Shown here: positions 3,803 to 29,257 of the stretch, one piece after another
Layout of the letters: each line of letters begins with the position of its first letter
How positions within the stretch are numbered: the first letter of the stretch is position 1
DNA from: Promethearchaeota archaeon
GTDB lineage: Archaea > Asgardarchaeota > Lokiarchaeia > Sigyniarchaeales > SOKP01
NCBI GenBank assembly: GCA_019058015.1
Contig: JAHLWH010000130.1
Location: forward strand, 1 to 37,378
Direction of reading: 5' to 3'
DNA: 37,378 bases
Made by a program: the position numbers and the translations under genes
Notes under the pieces: generated by a model
Told to the model about the DNA's origin: nothing
Seen by the model: the letters and a program-made list of their open reading frames with translations, nothing else
Database searches by the model: none

Positions 3803-3902
3803 GCAGAAGTAGTCTAGTGGTAAGGCGCCGGCCTCGAGATTCTTGAAATCGGGAAAGCCGGTGTGTGTTTCACACGCGGGGGTTCAATTCCCTCCTTCTG
3901 CG
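3803..3902 (+). tRNA. tRNA-Ser(CGA) with a 17-nt intron at 37/38 (3839-3855)
   Basis: Acceptor GCAGAAG/CTTCTGC with G73; D arm GTCT/AGGC; anticodon stem CCGGC/GCCGG with loop CT-CGA-G^A; long variable arm GTGTG/CACAC; T arm GGGGG-TTCAATT-CCCTC; BHB-like helix CTCG/CGGG with AGA and AAA bulges. No encoded CCA. Confidence 0.93.
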
Positions 3903-20594: not shown

Positions 20595-21896
20595 TTACTT
20601 TTCACCCTCAATTGGATTAATAATTTTCTTATTATTCATATATTTTTGAATAGCTTTAGGAATATTTATCGAATGATCTTCATTTTGATAATTTTCCAAA
20701 ATACAACATATAGTTCGTTCTGTCGCTATTGCAGTAGAATTTAATGTATGTATTATTTGATATCCTTCAGGGTCACCTAGCTTTCCAAATCGAATATTTA
20801 ATTTCCTTGCTTGATAATCCAAACAATTGCTACATGAACCTAGCTCTCTATATGCATTAGAGGCGGGAAACCACCCTTCAAGGTCGTATTTTTTTGCAGC
20901 GTTATCATTCATTTCTCCAGAAGCAATATTTACAATTCTATACGGAATTTCTAGTTTTTTGAAAAGATCTTCAGTATTTTTGTTTAATTCCTCATGATAA
21001 TTCCAAGAATCTTCAGGTTTGCATAGTATAAATTGTTCAATTTTTTCAAATTGATGAACGCGAAAAATTCCTAATGTATCCTTACCATGAGCCCCAGCTT
21101 CCCTTCTGAAACAAGTAGAGATTCCGGCATATTTTAACGGTAATTGATCATTATCAATTACTTCATTTTGATGATATGCAGCAAGCGTTTGTTCAGCTGT
21201 AGCAATCATATATAAGTCTTGATCCTGAATCTTATATAATTGTTCTTCAAAATCAGCAAGTTCTGATGCTGCTTTAATTGAATTATATTTAATGAAAAAT
21301 GGGGTCCATAATGGAATAAAATCTTTTGAAATTAAGAAATCTAAAGCAAATTGCATTAATGCAAGATTCATTACAGCTATATCATTTTTTAGGAAATAAA
21401 ATCTAGAACCAGAAATTTTAGATGCCCGTTTGATATCCACACCATCAATAAATTCAATTAAATCAACATGAGAAAGCGGATTAAATGAGAATTTTGGTAA
21501 GTCTCCGACATTTCTAACCAATTCATTCAAATCTTCGTTTTCACCCACGGGCACACTCTTATGAATTAAATTTCCAACCTGATAACGATACTCATCCCGT
21601 TTTTCTAATAATTTATTCACTTCATTTTCTACTTTAGGGATTAAATTACCTATACTCTTTGATTTTTCAACTAATTCTTGAATTTTATTTTTATCTTCGG
21701 CTTTTTTTTTCATATCAGCGATTTTTTTTGAGAGTTGATTTCTTTCATGCCTTAATTCATTTAATTCTTGTAATTTATTTCGCCAAGTTGTATCATACTC
21801 GATAACTTTATCAACTATATTTGAATCTTTAAAGCGTTTTTTCTCGGATTCATATATCAAATCAATGTTTTTTCGAAATAACTCGATATCAAGCAT
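20595..21896 (-). CDS. serS: Seryl-tRNA synthetase (standard type)
   Basis: MLDI start, N-terminal coiled coil, ATAEQ, FRREAG...GIFRVHQFEK, KKYDLE, ELGSCSNC and HTLNSTAIATER. Confidence 0.97.
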   Translation of the reverse strand: MLDIELFRKNIDLIYESEKKRFKDSNIVDKVIEYDTTWRNKLQELNELRHERNQLSKKIADMKKKAEDKNKIQELVEKSKSIGNLIPKVENEVNKLLEKRDEYRYQVGNLIHKSVPVGENEDLNELVRNVGDLPKFSFNPLSHVDLIEFIDGVDIKRASKISGSRFYFLKNDIAVMNLALMQFALDFLISKDFIPLWTPFFIKYNSIKAASELADFEEQLYKIQDQDLYMIATAEQTLAAYHQNEVIDNDQLPLKYAGISTCFRREAGAHGKDTLGIFRVHQFEKIEQFILCKPEDSWNYHEELNKNTEDLFKKLEIPYRIVNIASGEMNDNAAKKYDLEGWFPASNAYRELGSCSNCLDYQARKLNIRFGKLGDPEGYQIIHTLNSTAIATERTICCILENYQNEDHSINIPKAIQKYMNNKKIINPIEGEK

Positions 21897-22419: not shown

Positions 22420-24393
22420 ATGGAACAAGTTCGCATTGGAGTTTATGTTTGTGAGTGAGGGGTAAATATAGGGGGTTACGTAGATTGTGAAGCATTAAGA
22501 GACTTTGCAGAAACATTACCAAATGTTACAGTGGCTAAAATTAACAAATTTACATGTTCAGATCCAGGTCAACAAATAATTAAAAATGATATTCAAGAGT
22601 TGGACTTAAAAAGAGTAGTAGTGGCGTCATGAACACCAAAAATTCACGAACCTACATACAAATCATTGTGTGCTGAGTCCGGATTAAATCCTAATTATTT
22701 TCAAATGGTAAATATAAGAGAACATTGTTCATTTGTACATCAAGATAACAAAGAAAAAGCGACTCAAAAAGCAAAAAATTTAATTCGAGCAGGAGTAAAT
22801 AGAGCACGCCTTTTAGAAACTGTGCCAATCAAGGTTTTGAGCGTTGAGAAATCAGCGTTAGTTGTAGGAGCTGGTATTGCCGGGATGCATGCTGCGTGAG
22901 ATTTAGCAAACCATGGTATTAAGGTATATCTAGTTGAAAAAGAACCAACAATAGGCGGTAGAATGGCACAGTTAGATCGAATATTTCCAACAGATGATTG
23001 CGGAATATGAGTACTAGCACCAATTATGGTTAATGCATCAAAACATCCAAATATTGAATTAATGACATACTGTGAAGTTGTCGAATTTGGTGGATTCGCT
23101 GGCAATTATGAAATAAAAATTCTCAAAAAACCAAGATATGTTGATGAAAACAAATGTACGGGATGCGGTTTATGCACCACTAAATGTCCAATAGATGTAC
23201 CAGATGAGTTTAATAGAGGAATTGGGCAGAGACATGCAATTTATATTCCATTTCCACAAGCAGTCCCGATTCTTGCTTTAATTGATAAAGAAATATGCAT
23301 TGACTGCAAGCTTTGTGAAAAAGATTGTCCTGCTGAAGCAATTGATTATGAACAACAGCCAGAATATATCGATATTAAAGTGGGGGCTGTTATAATAGCA
23401 ACTGGTTGGGATGAATATCCAATTATTGATAGTAATGAGTATGGTTATGGCATCTATCCGAATGTAATAACCCAAATAGAATTGGAAAGATTATTAAGTC
23501 CAATCGGTCCAACTTATGGTCATGTCCATAGAATTTCCGATTGTAAAACGCCTAAAAATGTTGCTATGTTTCAGTGTGTTGGATCACGGAATTTAAAAGC
23601 TAATATATATTGTTCGGGTGTTTGTTGCATGGTTGCAATGAAAAATGCCCAACTTTTAAAACAAGAATATCCAGATATGGAAATCACAATTTTTTACATT
23701 GATATTAGGGCTACCGATAAAGGGAATGAAGAGTATTATACCGCAACGAGGAATGCAGGAGTTAATTTCATAAAGAGTAATATTTCACGAGTGTATGAAG
23801 ATCCGAAAACAAAAAAATTGAAATTTTTGGTGCAAGATTCTTTAAGAGAATCATTGGGCATTCAAGAGATGGAATATGATTTAATTGTTTTATCCACCGG
23901 AATCAATCCATCAAAAGGAACAAAAGAAGCCATTGCAGTATTGGGATTGGACAAAGGACCAAATGGATTTTTATCAGAAATTCATGGATGTCTCTCACCT
24001 CAAGAGACCAATAAACGGGGGATATATATTTGTGGTTGTGCTGCAGGTCCAAAAAACATTCCATATTCCGTATCTACTGCATTAGCAGCTGCGAGTAAAG
24101 CATCAGCACTTGTATTATCAGGTAGAATAAGACAAGAATTAATGATACCGGAAGTTGATCAGAATCTATGTATGGGATGCCACCGGTGTGAAAAATCATG
24201 TTTCTATCACGCTATTAAAGTTAATGAAGATGGTGTAGCCGAAGTTGATGAATTAAATTGTAAAGGATGTGGATTGTGTGTAACAGTCTGTCCAGCTAAT
24301 GCATTAGATCTAAAATATTATAGGAATAATCAATTTAAAAGTGAAATATATGGAATCTGTGGAAATAATTATTCTATGGAGGATACAGTTTAA
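22420..24393 (+). CDS. hdrA: Heterodisulfide reductase subunit A selenoprotein (657 aa; in-frame UGA at codons 13, 71, 160 and 197)
   Basis: One continuous frame: [18 protein letters not shown]...FTCSDPGQ...VVAS*TPKIHEP...[10 protein letters not shown]...[13 protein letters not shown]...[12 protein letters not shown], joining the 455-aa ORF with ferredoxin motifs and QCVGSR/YCSGVCC. TGAs at 22456, 22630, 22897 and 23008. GGGGAG upstream; TAA stop. Confidence 0.93.
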
Positions 24394-24431
24394 ATCTAAG
24401 TAAATAATAAAAAATGAGGGGTTTAAAAAAA

Positions 24432-24857
24432 ATGGAAAGTAAAATAATAAATCATAATCCTAAAATTATTTTGTTTGCTTGCGAAAAATGAGGTTATGCA
24501 GCTGCAGATTTAACCGGAACTTGTAGAAAACAATATTCATCTGATATCTATATAATAAGAGTGAAATGTACAGGACGTGTAAGTTTGGATATAATCATAG
24601 AATCACTTCTCAATGGGGCAGATGGGGTTGCAATAATAGGTTGACATGAGCATGAGTGTGAGTTTGGAGATGGTAATATGAATACATATAAGCATATTAA
24701 ATTTTTAAAAAAACTTTTCAAACATATCGGAATATCTGAAAATAGAGTTGAATATTATTTTGTATCTGCTGCAGAGGTGGAAAATTTTCTTAATGCTACT
24801 ACTGATATAATAGAGAAACTAAAAAAATTGCCTCCTTTACCAAAAAAATCTGAATAG
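24432..24857 (+). CDS. mvhD: MvhD/VhuD/FlpD [2Fe-2S] subunit selenoprotein (141 aa; UGA at codons 20 and 71)
   Basis: MESK...PKIILFACEK*GYAAADLTG...IRVKCTGRV...GADGVAIIG*HEHECEFGDGN...GISENRV...SAAE. TGAs at 24489 and 24642 occupy the CxxC and GCH Cys positions. Missing from the ORF track. Confidence 0.93.
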
Positions 24858-24897
24858 AATGACCTTTATAAAAAAATTTTAGTTATAAAGTGACTCT
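24856..24897 (+). promoter_or_regulatory. Eukaryote-like SECIS element in the 3' UTR
   Basis: AGA-ATGAC-CTTTATAA-AAAAATTTTAG-TTATAAAG-TGAC-TCT: UGAC/UGAC non-canonical quartet with tandem G.A pairs, perfect 8-bp upper helix, unpaired A-run at the 5' side of the loop, short lower helix. Directly after the mvhD stop. Confidence 0.85.
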
Positions 24898-24950
24898 CCT
24901 TGCAAGGGATCTCGGATTATTTTATATATAAATATTTAATTTGAAGAAAA

Positions 24951-26405
24951 ATGAAAGTGCAAGAGAATATTAATAGGAATGTTTTAAATGATGCATTAAA
25001 TGTTATGAAATCATATAGATTTAGAAATCTAATTGATTCTAAGGAAGACATTTTAAATTCAGGAATATATTCAGAAGAGGAATATTACGATTTCATTTTT
25101 ACATTGTACGATGAAGACAAATTAAAATATTCTCTTTTTAATTTTTTAAAAAATAAAGAAATTGCTTCTATTAAAGATTTAAAAGAATTTAGTAAAGAAT
25201 TTAATCATGATTTAAAAAAGATCTTGAGCTTATCTTATCTTTTAAAATATGAAAATTTAATTGAAATTAAAAAAAATGAAAATACTTCAGAATTAGAATT
25301 TAATATTAAAAATAAGGATTTTATTAAAGTTAAACCAATATATGAACCTGTCAAGGTTATATTTGATTCAAAAATATGTTCTGGTTGTGGAATTTGTCAA
25401 GGAATTTGTCCTGTTGATTGTATAAAAATTGATAACGGCGTTGGTATTATTGATGATGAGAAATGTATTAGTTGCGGGTTATGTTATACAGTTTGTCCAA
25501 GGTCATACTTACCAATAGACATTTTAAACATATATATCTCTAATTCAAATAAATTTAAAAATCAATCAGATATTGGAGAATATTTGGAAGCATATTCTGC
25601 AAAAACAAAAGTTGATGAGATATCCAAAATTTGTCAAGATGGTGGAATTGCAAGTTCTATTTTACATTATTTATTTGATACCCAGCAAATTGATGGTGCA
25701 ATTGGGGCTGGTATGAGTGAAACAATTTGGAAGCCAACACCACTTTTAATTAAAAATAAAGATGATATTAAAAAAACCTCAGGTACAAAATATGCAAATA
25801 ATCCTAATTTGCAATTATTAAATCAGCATATAGATTGTGAAAACTTGGCTGTAGTTGGAACTCCATGCATGATGCAAGCATTATTAAAATCTCATATTTA
25901 TAATTTTAAAACTCCAAATATAGAAAAAGTTAAATTTAGAATTGGAATTTTTTGTATGGAAAGCTTTCCATATGAGAGTATTTTAGAAATTGTAAAAAGA
26001 TTGTCTGTAGAAATTAATGATATAAAAAAAATGGACATAAATAAAGGAAAATTTTTTATATATCCAAAAAATGGCGAGCCTAAAAATATCCCAATTAAAG
26101 AAATAACTTCATTAGCTAGAGAAGATTGCGAATATTGTTATGATTTAACATCAGAATCTGCTGATATTTCTATAGGCTCAATTGGGTCCCCAGCAGGGTG
26201 GTCGACTGTTTTAGTCAGAACAAAAGTTGGAAAGGAAATTTTTAAGGGATTAGTTGATAAAAATTATATCGAATGGAAAGATCTTCAAGATGTTCAGCCC
26301 GGCTTAAACTTATTATTAAAAATTGCTAAAATGAAAAGAAAAAATTGTACTGAACATATTAATAAGGTAAAAATGGAGAAAGAGCATATTCCTCAATATT
26401 ATTAA
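24951..26405 (+). CDS. Coenzyme F420 hydrogenase/dehydrogenase beta-subunit family protein (FrhB/FdhB-like) with ferredoxin domain and ~130-aa N-terminal extension
   Basis: CSGCGICQGICP and CISCGLCYTVCP; QDGGIAS, SGTKY, VGTPC, GIFCME, CEYCYD, ADISIGSIGSP.GWS. Confidence 0.9.
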   Translation: MKVQENINRNVLNDALNVMKSYRFRNLIDSKEDILNSGIYSEEEYYDFIFTLYDEDKLKYSLFNFLKNKEIASIKDLKEFSKEFNHDLKKILSLSYLLKYENLIEIKKNENTSELEFNIKNKDFIKVKPIYEPVKVIFDSKICSGCGICQGICPVDCIKIDNGVGIIDDEKCISCGLCYTVCPRSYLPIDILNIYISNSNKFKNQSDIGEYLEAYSAKTKVDEISKICQDGGIASSILHYLFDTQQIDGAIGAGMSETIWKPTPLLIKNKDDIKKTSGTKYANNPNLQLLNQHIDCENLAVVGTPCMMQALLKSHIYNFKTPNIEKVKFRIGIFCMESFPYESILEIVKRLSVEINDIKKMDINKGKFFIYPKNGEPKNIPIKEITSLAREDCEYCYDLTSESADISIGSIGSPAGWSTVLVRTKVGKEIFKGLVDKNYIEWKDLQDVQPGLNLLLKIAKMKRKNCTEHINKVKMEKEHIPQYY

Positions 26406-26473: not shown

Positions 26474-29257
26474 TTACTGAAGTAATATTTCCTTATCATG
26501 ATATATCATTCCAAGGAAAGAGACTAAATCCATTACTTTTAGTTTTAAATCTCTATTTTCTTGTAGATAGCAATTAAAATGAGTTAAACATTTTGGGCAC
26601 GTTACTATCAAATATTCGGCACCTGTATCAATAGCTTCATTAATCCTTTGACCTTGCAGTAGTTTTGAATAATTACTACAAGAGATATAAGCAGAAACTC
26701 CACAACAATTTGCATCTTGCCTGTTATTTATCATTTCTATCAATTCAACATTTGGGAAATTATTTAATATATCACGGGGAGCATCATAAACATTACTCAA
26801 TCTACCAAGTCTGCAGGGATCGTGATAAGTTATTTTAATTTTATCCTGATCAGAAAGTTTCAAATTATCTAATAATTTTTCTTTTTGTATATATTCGCTA
26901 ATGTGATATACTTCAAAATCATATTCATTATCATCTTTAAAAAACTCTTTATATACATACTTCCACATATAGTAGCCTTCAGCACAGCTGCATATTATGG
27001 TTTTTACTCCTACATCTTTATATAATTTTGCGTTATATTTTGCCAACTTTTCGAAAGTATCTAAATCTCCAGTCCAATAACAATCATGTCCACAACATTT
27101 CTCATCAGCTAAAACTACTGGAGTGATATTATTTAGGTTTAGAATACCAATAGTCGTTTTTGGGATTTTTAAATAATCAATATTGTTATGGTAGAGTGGA
27201 AATTGACATGTTCCATAGTAATGTTTTGATTTTTGGGAATTATTAAATGAATCATCATCTTTTTCATAAGGGATATCACAGTTAGAACAACTATTACAAT
27301 TTAAGCATCGATTTGCTTCCTGAATTGCAATTTCTTCGGTAAATTCGAGTTCAACTTCATTAAAAGAGCTACATCTTTCTTCTATTGGGATAATAGGCAG
27401 ATCATTTCTCTCTTCGAAATTAACTTCCTTTTTAGGGATTGGTGATGTTTTAAATTCTTCTCTTTTAAATCTGTTTTCACCTATATCAATCCCTCTTAGA
27501 TATCGATCAATAGAAATTGCTGCTTCATATCCATTAGCTATTGCTCTAATTGCTATTCCTTGACCCTCTGTAACATCTCCCCCAGCAAAAACACCAGGGA
27601 TATTTGTTTCTAAAGTAGAGTCATCAATTTGAATTTTATCTCTTTTACTTATTATCAACTCATTTTGAGCTGCCTTTAGGAGAGAATAATCAGCTTCTTG
27701 ACCTATTGCTAATATTAACACATCAATTTTCATTTTAAATTCAGAGCCTTCGATTTGAATAGGTCTTCTCCTTCCTGAAGAATCTGGTTCGCCAAGTTTC
27801 ATTCGTATACATTCTACTTTGGAAACATTTCCTTTTTTATCTCCAATTATTCTTACCGGATTAGTTAAGAATTGAAAATCTATATTTTCTTCGTTTGCCA
27901 TTTCAATTTCCTCTTCTGTTGCAGGCATTTCCTTTTCCGAACGTCGATAAATAACAATCACTTTTTTTGCACCTAATCTTACGGCAGTTCTTGCTGAGTC
28001 CATAGCAACATTTCCACCACCCGTTACTCCAATAATTTTATCTTTTATTATCACAGGAGATTTTTTAGATACTTGATCTGTAGGTCTGAGATCTTTGAGA
28101 AATTCTATTCCTCCTATAACATTATTCAATTCTTCACCTTCGAGTCTCATACTTCGGCTACTCTGGAGTCCTATTGATATAAAAATCGCTTTATAACCCA
28201 TATTTGTTAACTTCTTGAATGTCAAATCTGGGCCTATTGGAGTATCTGTTTTTATCTCAACTCCACTTTTTTCTATGAATTCAATTTCATAATCCAAAAT
28301 ATCATCAGGTAATCTATATTCTGGGATTCCAACTCTCAGCATACCTCCTTTAAAAGGGCTGGCTTCAAATATTGTTGGTTTATATCCTTTTTTTGCAAGA
28401 AAATATGCTGCTGTTAGACCAGCAGGTCCCGAACCAATAATAGCAACTTGTTCTTTTGTTTGTTTAAATGGTTTTAATTGACTTAAGGGTTGATTTTTTA
28501 TTTCCCAATCAGCAACAAATCTTTTTAATGCCCGGATGGCAATTGGTTTATCTATAGTATTACGATTACAATTTAATTCACATGGATGTGTGCAAATTCG
28601 CCCACATACACCTGGAAGGGGATTCTTCTCCCGTATTAAATTGAGAGATTCTTGAAATCTTCCTTCTTTAATTAATGTAATATAACTTTGAACATCAATA
28701 TTTGCAGGGCAAGCTTGTGTACACGGTGATATTCCATTCATAAATGGCAAGCAACCTATAAAATATGCTATTTCTCCTTTTTTAGCAATCTTTAAATCTG
28801 TATTGTCTAAAAAGCCAATTTTATTTACTAATTCTATTTGATCATTAGCCATTAAATGCGGTAAATTTGAATATAATCGACCATGAGTTGTACATTGAAG
28901 CTTTTCCTCTTGAAATGGGTCATTTTCTGTAGCAATAGTTCGAAGTTTTAAAATAATATCGAGAAAATTAACACCAATGTTATCTTTAGACATTGGACAA
29001 TATTCTGAACAAAGACCACAAGTTAAACAACTCCAAATATTTGAGTTATTAATTGCCTCTTCAACTGAGTAAGTAGAAAAATCTCTAACTAATTGCCTTG
29101 GATAAAACAATCCAAATGGAGAGAGAGGACATATATTAATACAACGATTGCAATCATAACAATAGTAAGAGGATTTTAACAACTCAGACATTTTTTCAAT
29201 GCCCTTATGCTCAATATTTAAACTCGTCCCTATAGAAGTTTTACTTTTAGTTTTCAT
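26474..29257 (-). CDS. HdrD-like Fe-S protein (2x[4Fe-4S] + CCG domains) with an inserted GltD/NfnB-like FAD/NAD(P) oxidoreductase module
   Basis: CYDCNRCINICP, CLTCGLCSEYCP; YFIGC; then PCTQACP, GVCGRICTHPCE..C, GSGPAG, GGGNVAMD, YRRS, FAGGD, RCLNC; then EKCCG, CAEG, YHDPCRLGR, CCG and CPKC. Confidence 0.88.
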   Translation of the reverse strand: MKTKSKTSIGTSLNIEHKGIEKMSELLKSSYYCYDCNRCINICPLSPFGLFYPRQLVRDFSTYSVEEAINNSNIWSCLTCGLCSEYCPMSKDNIGVNFLDIILKLRTIATENDPFQEEKLQCTTHGRLYSNLPHLMANDQIELVNKIGFLDNTDLKIAKKGEIAYFIGCLPFMNGISPCTQACPANIDVQSYITLIKEGRFQESLNLIREKNPLPGVCGRICTHPCELNCNRNTIDKPIAIRALKRFVADWEIKNQPLSQLKPFKQTKEQVAIIGSGPAGLTAAYFLAKKGYKPTIFEASPFKGGMLRVGIPEYRLPDDILDYEIEFIEKSGVEIKTDTPIGPDLTFKKLTNMGYKAIFISIGLQSSRSMRLEGEELNNVIGGIEFLKDLRPTDQVSKKSPVIIKDKIIGVTGGGNVAMDSARTAVRLGAKKVIVIYRRSEKEMPATEEEIEMANEENIDFQFLTNPVRIIGDKKGNVSKVECIRMKLGEPDSSGRRRPIQIEGSEFKMKIDVLILAIGQEADYSLLKAAQNELIISKRDKIQIDDSTLETNIPGVFAGGDVTEGQGIAIRAIANGYEAAISIDRYLRGIDIGENRFKREEFKTSPIPKKEVNFEERNDLPIIPIEERCSSFNEVELEFTEEIAIQEANRCLNCNSCSNCDIPYEKDDDSFNNSQKSKHYYGTCQFPLYHNNIDYLKIPKTTIGILNLNNITPVVLADEKCCGHDCYWTGDLDTFEKLAKYNAKLYKDVGVKTIICSCAEGYYMWKYVYKEFFKDDNEYDFEVYHISEYIQKEKLLDNLKLSDQDKIKITYHDPCRLGRLSNVYDAPRDILNNFPNVELIEMINNRQDANCCGVSAYISCSNYSKLLQGQRINEAIDTGAEYLIVTCPKCLTHFNCYLQENRDLKLKVMDLVSFLGMIYHDKEILLQ

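Follow-up and report, generated by a model that had tools for sequence, protein, structure and literature searches.

In Lokiarchaeota a single SECIS element located past vhuD serves up to six UGA codons of the hdrA-vhuD gene pair, as described by Mariotti et al. 2016 (PMC4989117), and all Sec positions of HdrA described in that paper align to conserved cysteines in Lokiarchaeota, the canonical position being found at about residue 200. The hdrA-vhuD selenoprotein system of Lokiarchaeota was extended to Asgard archaea in a further article (PMC11227280). Moreover, Peiter and Rother 2022 (PMC9622424) reported, using a beta-lactamase Sec reporter in M. maripaludis, that UGA recoding by a SECIS in the 3′-UTR takes place at several positions and over several distances.

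The window, i.e. the complete stretch of 37,378 nucleotides which was analyzed, is AT-rich (25–32% GC) and carries such a pair. The first gene, hdrA, encoding a homolog of the heterodisulfide reductase subunit A, is located at 22420..24393 on the forward strand, comprises 657 codons with TGA readthrough and ends with the stop TAA. In translation its frame is open only if four TGAs, at codons 13, 71, 160 and 197, are read through. The product matched the solved HdrA of Methanothermococcus thermolithotrophicus (5odc_A) over residues 1–646 of 657 (E 1e-219) and gave Pfam matches to the Fer4, Pyr_redox_2 and NAD_binding_8 families. Full-length similarity, comprising the Cys-rich N-terminus, the FAD-binding Rossmann motif and the 4Fe-4S ferredoxin-type domains, assigns this predicted protein to HdrA. 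At least four further full-length HdrA homologs were found in the genome of the window (G000), on contigs C237, C143, C134 and C228. With respect to the neighborhood, a seryl-tRNA synthetase gene (20595-21896, reverse strand) lies divergently upstream of the pair, a gene for an FrhB/FdhB-like iron-sulfur protein (24951-26405, forward strand) follows directly downstream of the SECIS described below, and the reverse strand at 26474-29257 encodes a 927-aa fusion of a ferredoxin, a GltD-like flavoprotein and two HdrB-type CCG domains.

The second gene of the pair is of the vhuD/mvhD/frhD type (FlpD family; PF02662 FlpD, E 2.2e-39). It occupies 24414..24857 on the forward strand, starts about 20 bases past the end of hdrA and terminates with TAG, whereby its start may be ATG 24414 or ATG 24432. 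Two in-frame TGAs, at 24489-24491 and 24642-24644, were found in vhuD, both at Cys/Sec columns. Directly past the vhuD stop, a lokiSECIS common to hdrA and vhuD was located by pattern and comparison at 24859..24893 (forward strand). It consists of AUGA (24859-24862), a stem formed by 24863-24871 with 24883-24891, a loop at 24872-24882 and a terminal GA (24892-24893). The stem has nine positions with eight standard pairs plus C.U, and the 11-nt loop reads AAAAAUUUUAG. The combination of AUGA, 9-bp stem, 11-nt loop starting with A and GA just past vhuD assigns this putative element to the lokiSECIS type.

The strict lokiSECIS pattern was found after vhuD in 18 of 30 orthologous loci, while only two matches occurred elsewhere in those loci. 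Among these 18 elements all nine stem pairs (9/9) were changed on both sides, and 94.4% of the cells were paired, a share which is biased upward because the 18 rows were chosen for at least 8/9 pairs. The minimum-free-energy fold of the SECIS region gave a z-score of −0.12, which is not significant, and the support is thus comparative rather than thermodynamic. Furthermore, an outer stem is predicted between 24847-24853 and 24912-24918 (forward strand; AAUCUGA with UCGGAUU), the 5′ arm of which would fall within the 3′-terminal codons of vhuD, together with a further small hairpin at 24897-24909 (forward strand) beside the SECIS core. A UUCGGA-like 3′ motif and a CCC...GGG hairpin were observed at the corresponding place in many orthologous 3′ regions. 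When the complete window was searched against Rfam (gathering thresholds), no SECIS family was returned and the only match was a tRNA at 3803-3902 (forward strand, 50.2 bits). An intron-containing tRNA gene is suggested there, because the match covers 100 bases for a 71-position model.

As regards the decoding of Sec, the genome carries a tRNA-SeC with the anticodon tca (contig C156) and SepSecS (PF05889, 388.5 bits, contig C197). The 34 ORFs of the window end with TAA (22), TAG (9) or TGA (3), and nearly all other long ORFs remain intact when they are translated with the standard code (table 11). Since the ORFs are intact, TGA serves as a stop and both tRNA-Sec and SepSecS are present, TGA is to be regarded as a stop which is locally recoded to Sec rather than reassigned. 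Judged by this gene content, the organism would be a Sec-decoding one, having tRNA-Sec, a Sec synthesis gene and TGA as an otherwise ordinary stop. Its nearest named relatives are Promethearchaeia/Promethearchaeota MAGs, i.e. Loki-type Asgard archaea.

For the analysis of the individual TGAs 73 HdrA homologs from 41 related genomes were compared. This set comprises the 30 loci of the homolog search, 40 loci from the top of its list and three further paralogs of the window's genome, and it leans to TGA-rich copies, as the 40 added loci were taken with a preference for at least three TGAs. TGA codon 13 (22456..22458, forward strand, CEUG) lies in a Sec/Cys column (U 64, C 7 of the 71 homologs with a residue at this position) and aligns to the Cys of CHCG in 5odc_A. 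TGA codon 71 (22630..22632, forward strand, VASUTP) likewise occupies a Sec/Cys column (U 32, C 40 of 72 homologs) and aligns to the Cys of AACSP, whereas TGA codon 197 (23008..23010, forward strand, DDCGIU), the canonical HdrA Sec position, is nearly invariant as Sec (U 72, C 1 of 73) and aligns to the Cys of DCSIC. By column conservation and recurrence in orthologs among the 73 homologs all three codons behave as Sec codons.

Throughout the set, 186 of the 188 in-frame TGAs stand at columns which are otherwise Cys. Ten Cys columns carry TGA, namely 13, 46, 71, 197, 246, 296, 402, 403, 594 and 620 in the numbering of the window, compared with the five positions reported in the 2016 paper (PMC4989117). 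One homolog (L032, G020:C12:40265-42523) has five TGAs in HdrA, two of which stand next to each other (VUUC) in the conserved CC motif 402-403. The two exceptions at non-Cys columns are singletons, each in a single MAG: Leu160 in the window and Gly88 in L004 (G002:C68), where GGA is replaced by TGA and the other 72 homologs have Gly or Asp/Asn/Val/Leu. L004 belongs to a fragmentary MAG and the same gene also contains an in-frame TAA; its codon 88 TGA is the same kind of assembly-only stop as codon 160 of the window. A global reassignment of TGA, as in code 4 or 25, was ruled out with respect to the intact long ORFs, the 3 of 34 ORFs ending in TGA and the 186 of 188 HdrA TGAs at Cys.

The fourth TGA of hdrA, codon 160 at 22897..22899 (forward strand), was at the center of the initial annotation, which had placed an in-frame TGA at a non-cysteine position in the helix following the GxGxxG FAD-binding loop. 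This description was confirmed for the window, and the residue aligned to codon 160 in 5odc_A is Leu. Among the 73 homologs the column reads L46, I21, N3, V2 and U1, the single U being that of the window; in the 28 other orthologous loci (28/28) Leu was found 23 times, Ile four times and Asn once, and Cys or TGA not at all. The tabulation of this column, which the initial annotation had proposed, thus yielded no Cys, as all 72 other homologs (72/72) carry Leu, Ile, Val or Asn. An ordinary Sec/Cys pair was ruled out on the same count (Cys in 0/72 other homologs). The three orthologs of the same genus (L002, L003 and L004; 96–97% identity) read GCTGCG-TTA-GAT where the window reads GCTGCG-TGA-GAT. 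Consequently, the codon of the window differs by a single T-to-G change at 22898, which is assembly-specific, and this alignment demonstrates TTA as the ancestral codon. When codon 160 was examined for Cys or TGA in homologs and for recurrence in orthologs, neither was found.

A second deviation was detected immediately upstream, at codon 157 (22888..22890, forward strand), where the window reads CAT (His157) and all close relatives read AAT (Asn). His occurs at this column in one of the 73 homologs. N157H and L160U are the only window-specific changes at columns which are invariant in the family orthologs L002-L022; they are 10 bases apart with His157 upstream, both convert A/T to C/G and both are non-synonymous. 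Since the two neighboring changes both alter the amino acid at an invariant column and are found in no other data set, the pair looks like the product of one local event and not of selection, as far as can be judged from the aligned sequences. The motif GCCGGG stands just upstream of the changed sites. Past GGC-type motifs, Illumina sequencing typically produces systematic A-to-C and T-to-G errors following a G. As a different origin, a paralog was considered as the donor, via gene conversion or chimeric assembly, but this was not supported: the genome contains the 31-mer spanning the site only once, and none of the 72 other homologs has His157 or TGA160.

In order to compare the site with independent data, Logan contigs of four public runs from three studies were aligned to 22420-24900; as these are contigs and not raw reads, they speak for the presence of T and not for the absence of G. 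All four runs carried T at 22898 at full depth: X1, which is flagged as possible source (24.3 of 24.3), X3, another sample of the study of X1 (9.35 of 9.35), X5 from another study (35.4 of 35.4) and X11 from another study (9.42 of 9.42). No covering contig in any of the four runs (4/4) had G at 22898, a result at the contig level, where rare variants are dropped. Over 2481 bases X3 showed just two differences from the window, a C>A and a G>T, the latter being at 22898. The C>A is very probably position 22888, because the left X3 contig ceases to match exactly at 22887. X1 differs from the window also at 23938. For the region 22758-22894 both X1 and X5 contain two alternative 137-base unitigs each, with 12 versus 1–2 differences from the window. 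Therefore, at least two strains coexist which differ in hdrA just upstream of codon 160. The refuting outcome named in the initial annotation, that reads show TTA, was accordingly reached by proxy only, the TTA being found in contigs of 4/4 runs in place of raw reads.

In a collection of 15 billion proteins, the 77-aa ORF product which ends at the codon 160 TGA was present on one contig, that of the window itself. Its 90% cluster holds 12 other members with 39 contig sightings (NCBI, Logan, ENA and JGI), all with MNAAL. These siblings read ...GMNAALDLANHG or ...GMNAALNLANHG, i.e. Asn157 together with Leu160. Among these, P0021, known from 7 contigs (NCBI and Logan), shares all residues with the window apart from Asn157 and continues through Leu160. 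In addition, JGI metagenome contigs were scanned with the flanks of the window, both changed sites being set to N. Two matching contigs were obtained and both (2/2) read AAT...TTA, so that Asn157 (AAT) is found in 12/12 protein-cluster siblings and both JGI contigs. For one of the JGI contigs only 3 mismatches to the window were counted over 146 bases, and the changed sites in codons 157 and 160 account for two of them. With the contigs of 4/4 runs, 2/2 JGI contigs and a protein known from one contig, codon 160 as a Sec codon was not reproduced in these independent data.

TGA160 is thus a singleton, and T stands at its second position in independent contigs. Taken together, we consider it highly probable that the TGA at codon 160 is an assembly-specific deviation from TTA, to be traced to an erroneous base or to a private or rare allele rather than to programmed recoding. 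Under this explanation hdrA would be an ordinary Loki-type multi-Sec gene, co-transcribed with vhuD and provided with a single SECIS of the eukaryote-like type, which follows vhuD. The real Sec codons of hdrA would be 13, 71 and 197, each located in a conserved Cys column, codon 160 would be the leucine codon TTA in the population of this organism, and the G at 22898 together with the C at 22888 would be peculiar to one assembled contig. Because G22898 is peculiar to one contig, it is to be seen as an error or a private or rare allele instead of a recoding site. This agrees with the third option of the initial annotation, a TTA-to-TGA error or mutation, which is supported by TTA in three same-genus orthologs and in the contigs of four runs. 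As to the cause, we infer that a base-calling or assembly error is the more probable origin and a rare allele the less probable one. A small share is kept for a real allele, as several observations speak against a mere error: at a depth of 9–24x an assembler would normally not follow an erroneous path, and the sample or strain of the MAG may have a dominant G haplotype; contigs lose rare variants, so a low-frequency G is compatible with the contig data; the flag of X1 as "possible source" falls short of proof, and X1 deviates from the window at a further site. Furthermore, the rest of hdrA is intact, with no frameshift and no further window-specific change at invariant columns beyond 157/160, and a 3′ SECIS is present, so that a real UGA160 could be decoded as Sec and survive for some time.

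If the G is real, codon 160 might belong to a private or low-frequency allele whose UGA is read as accidental Sec at a hydrophobic helix position, because the shared 3′ lokiSECIS would act on any in-frame UGA of the hdrA-vhuD mRNA and would probably direct the insertion of Sec with some efficiency; tolerated or mildly harmful, such an allele would not yet have been purged. We regard this as unlikely, although the machinery would be at hand: the lokiSECIS is intact and conserved, the genome has tRNA-Sec and SepSecS, five other recoded UGAs are located on the hdrA-vhuD mRNA, hdrA is otherwise undamaged, and the 3′-UTR SECIS in M. maripaludis was reported to recode three reporter positions, including a Ser codon (PMC9622424). 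However, the variant is found on no other contig of the four runs, the JGI set or the protein collection, the other 72 homologs (72/72) have nothing but hydrophobic residues or Asn in this column, and a second unique non-synonymous change lies at an invariant Asn, which is not favored by selection. Very unlikely is a real nonsense allele through which one strain would have a truncated or inactive product of this hdrA copy. Such a loss would be tolerated because the genome has several other hdrA paralogs, the at least four full-length homologs mentioned above, and TGA is an ordinary stop in 3 of 34 window ORFs. Nevertheless, TGA160 is equally unreproduced elsewhere under this explanation, hdrA has no further signs of decay, and with a working SECIS on the mRNA Sec insertion would compete, leaving termination incomplete. 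The remaining options of the initial annotation, a programmed non-catalytic Sec and a selenium-dependent translational checkpoint at codon 160, were not supported and are extremely improbable: nothing speaks for them except that the window contains the codon, TGA160 is a singleton among 73 homologs which is not conserved within the genus (0/72 others, three same-genus orthologs included), and every recurrent TGA column of the family is a Cys column.

The preferred explanation of an assembly-specific deviation has consequences for the annotation of selenoproteins, as multi-TGA genes easily hide a single-base artefact or a private nonsense allele among true Sec codons; the TGAs which enter selenoproteome counts should therefore first be screened by column conservation and read support. 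A slim chance is left that G22898 is a true minority haplotype of the sediment Promethearchaeia population, its UGA being read as Sec at a buried leucine position. In that case it would capture, in nature and at a single moment, how genes already provided with a SECIS acquire accidental Sec sites and later retain or purge them. If UGA160 were genuine and conserved, it would represent a rare prokaryotic Sec at a non-Cys, non-catalytic site and direct natural evidence for position-independent recoding. The premise of the initial annotation that a 3′ SECIS recodes any upstream UGA is reasonable, yet its novelty did not hold up, since such recoding has already been reported in Methanococcus maripaludis (PMC9622424). 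On our reading, that reporter result would make a natural accidental Sec plausible, yet not new in principle.

With respect to the known systems, the multi-Sec HdrA, the shared lokiSECIS past vhuD and up to six UGAs per transcript are already published (PMC4989117, PMC11227280), and the locus matches the Lokiarchaeota pairs, as these are described in the 2016 paper (PMC4989117), in most features. In the window as in these pairs, hdrA is followed by vhuD on one strand after about 20–40 bases, several TGAs occupy conserved Cys columns, among them the canonical position near 200, and vhuD has two TGAs. After vhuD stands, as in lokiSECIS, AUGA, a 9-position stem, an 11-nt loop starting with AAAAA, and GA. 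Unlike the Lokiarchaeota pairs in that account, the fourth hdrA TGA of the window aligns to Leu, and it is exactly this TGA which is unreproduced elsewhere. In analogy to Methanococcales HdrA (5odc chain A, HdrABC-MvhAGD), the window protein has the FAD-binding GxGxxG...ALDL helix and conserved Cys columns 13, 71 and 197, whereas 5odc chain A differs in having Leu at the TGA160 of the window and Cys at the three real Sec codons. The M. maripaludis reporter represents the mechanism which was hoped for at codon 160, with one UGA replacing a Ser codon, but it is an engineered construct and uses a methanogen-type SECIS (PMC9622424). The closest parallel to codon 160 itself is the Gly88 GGA-to-TGA change of L004, which is likewise a single-base stop at a conserved non-Cys position in one assembly only, and which differs from TGA160 of the window in its position and base change.
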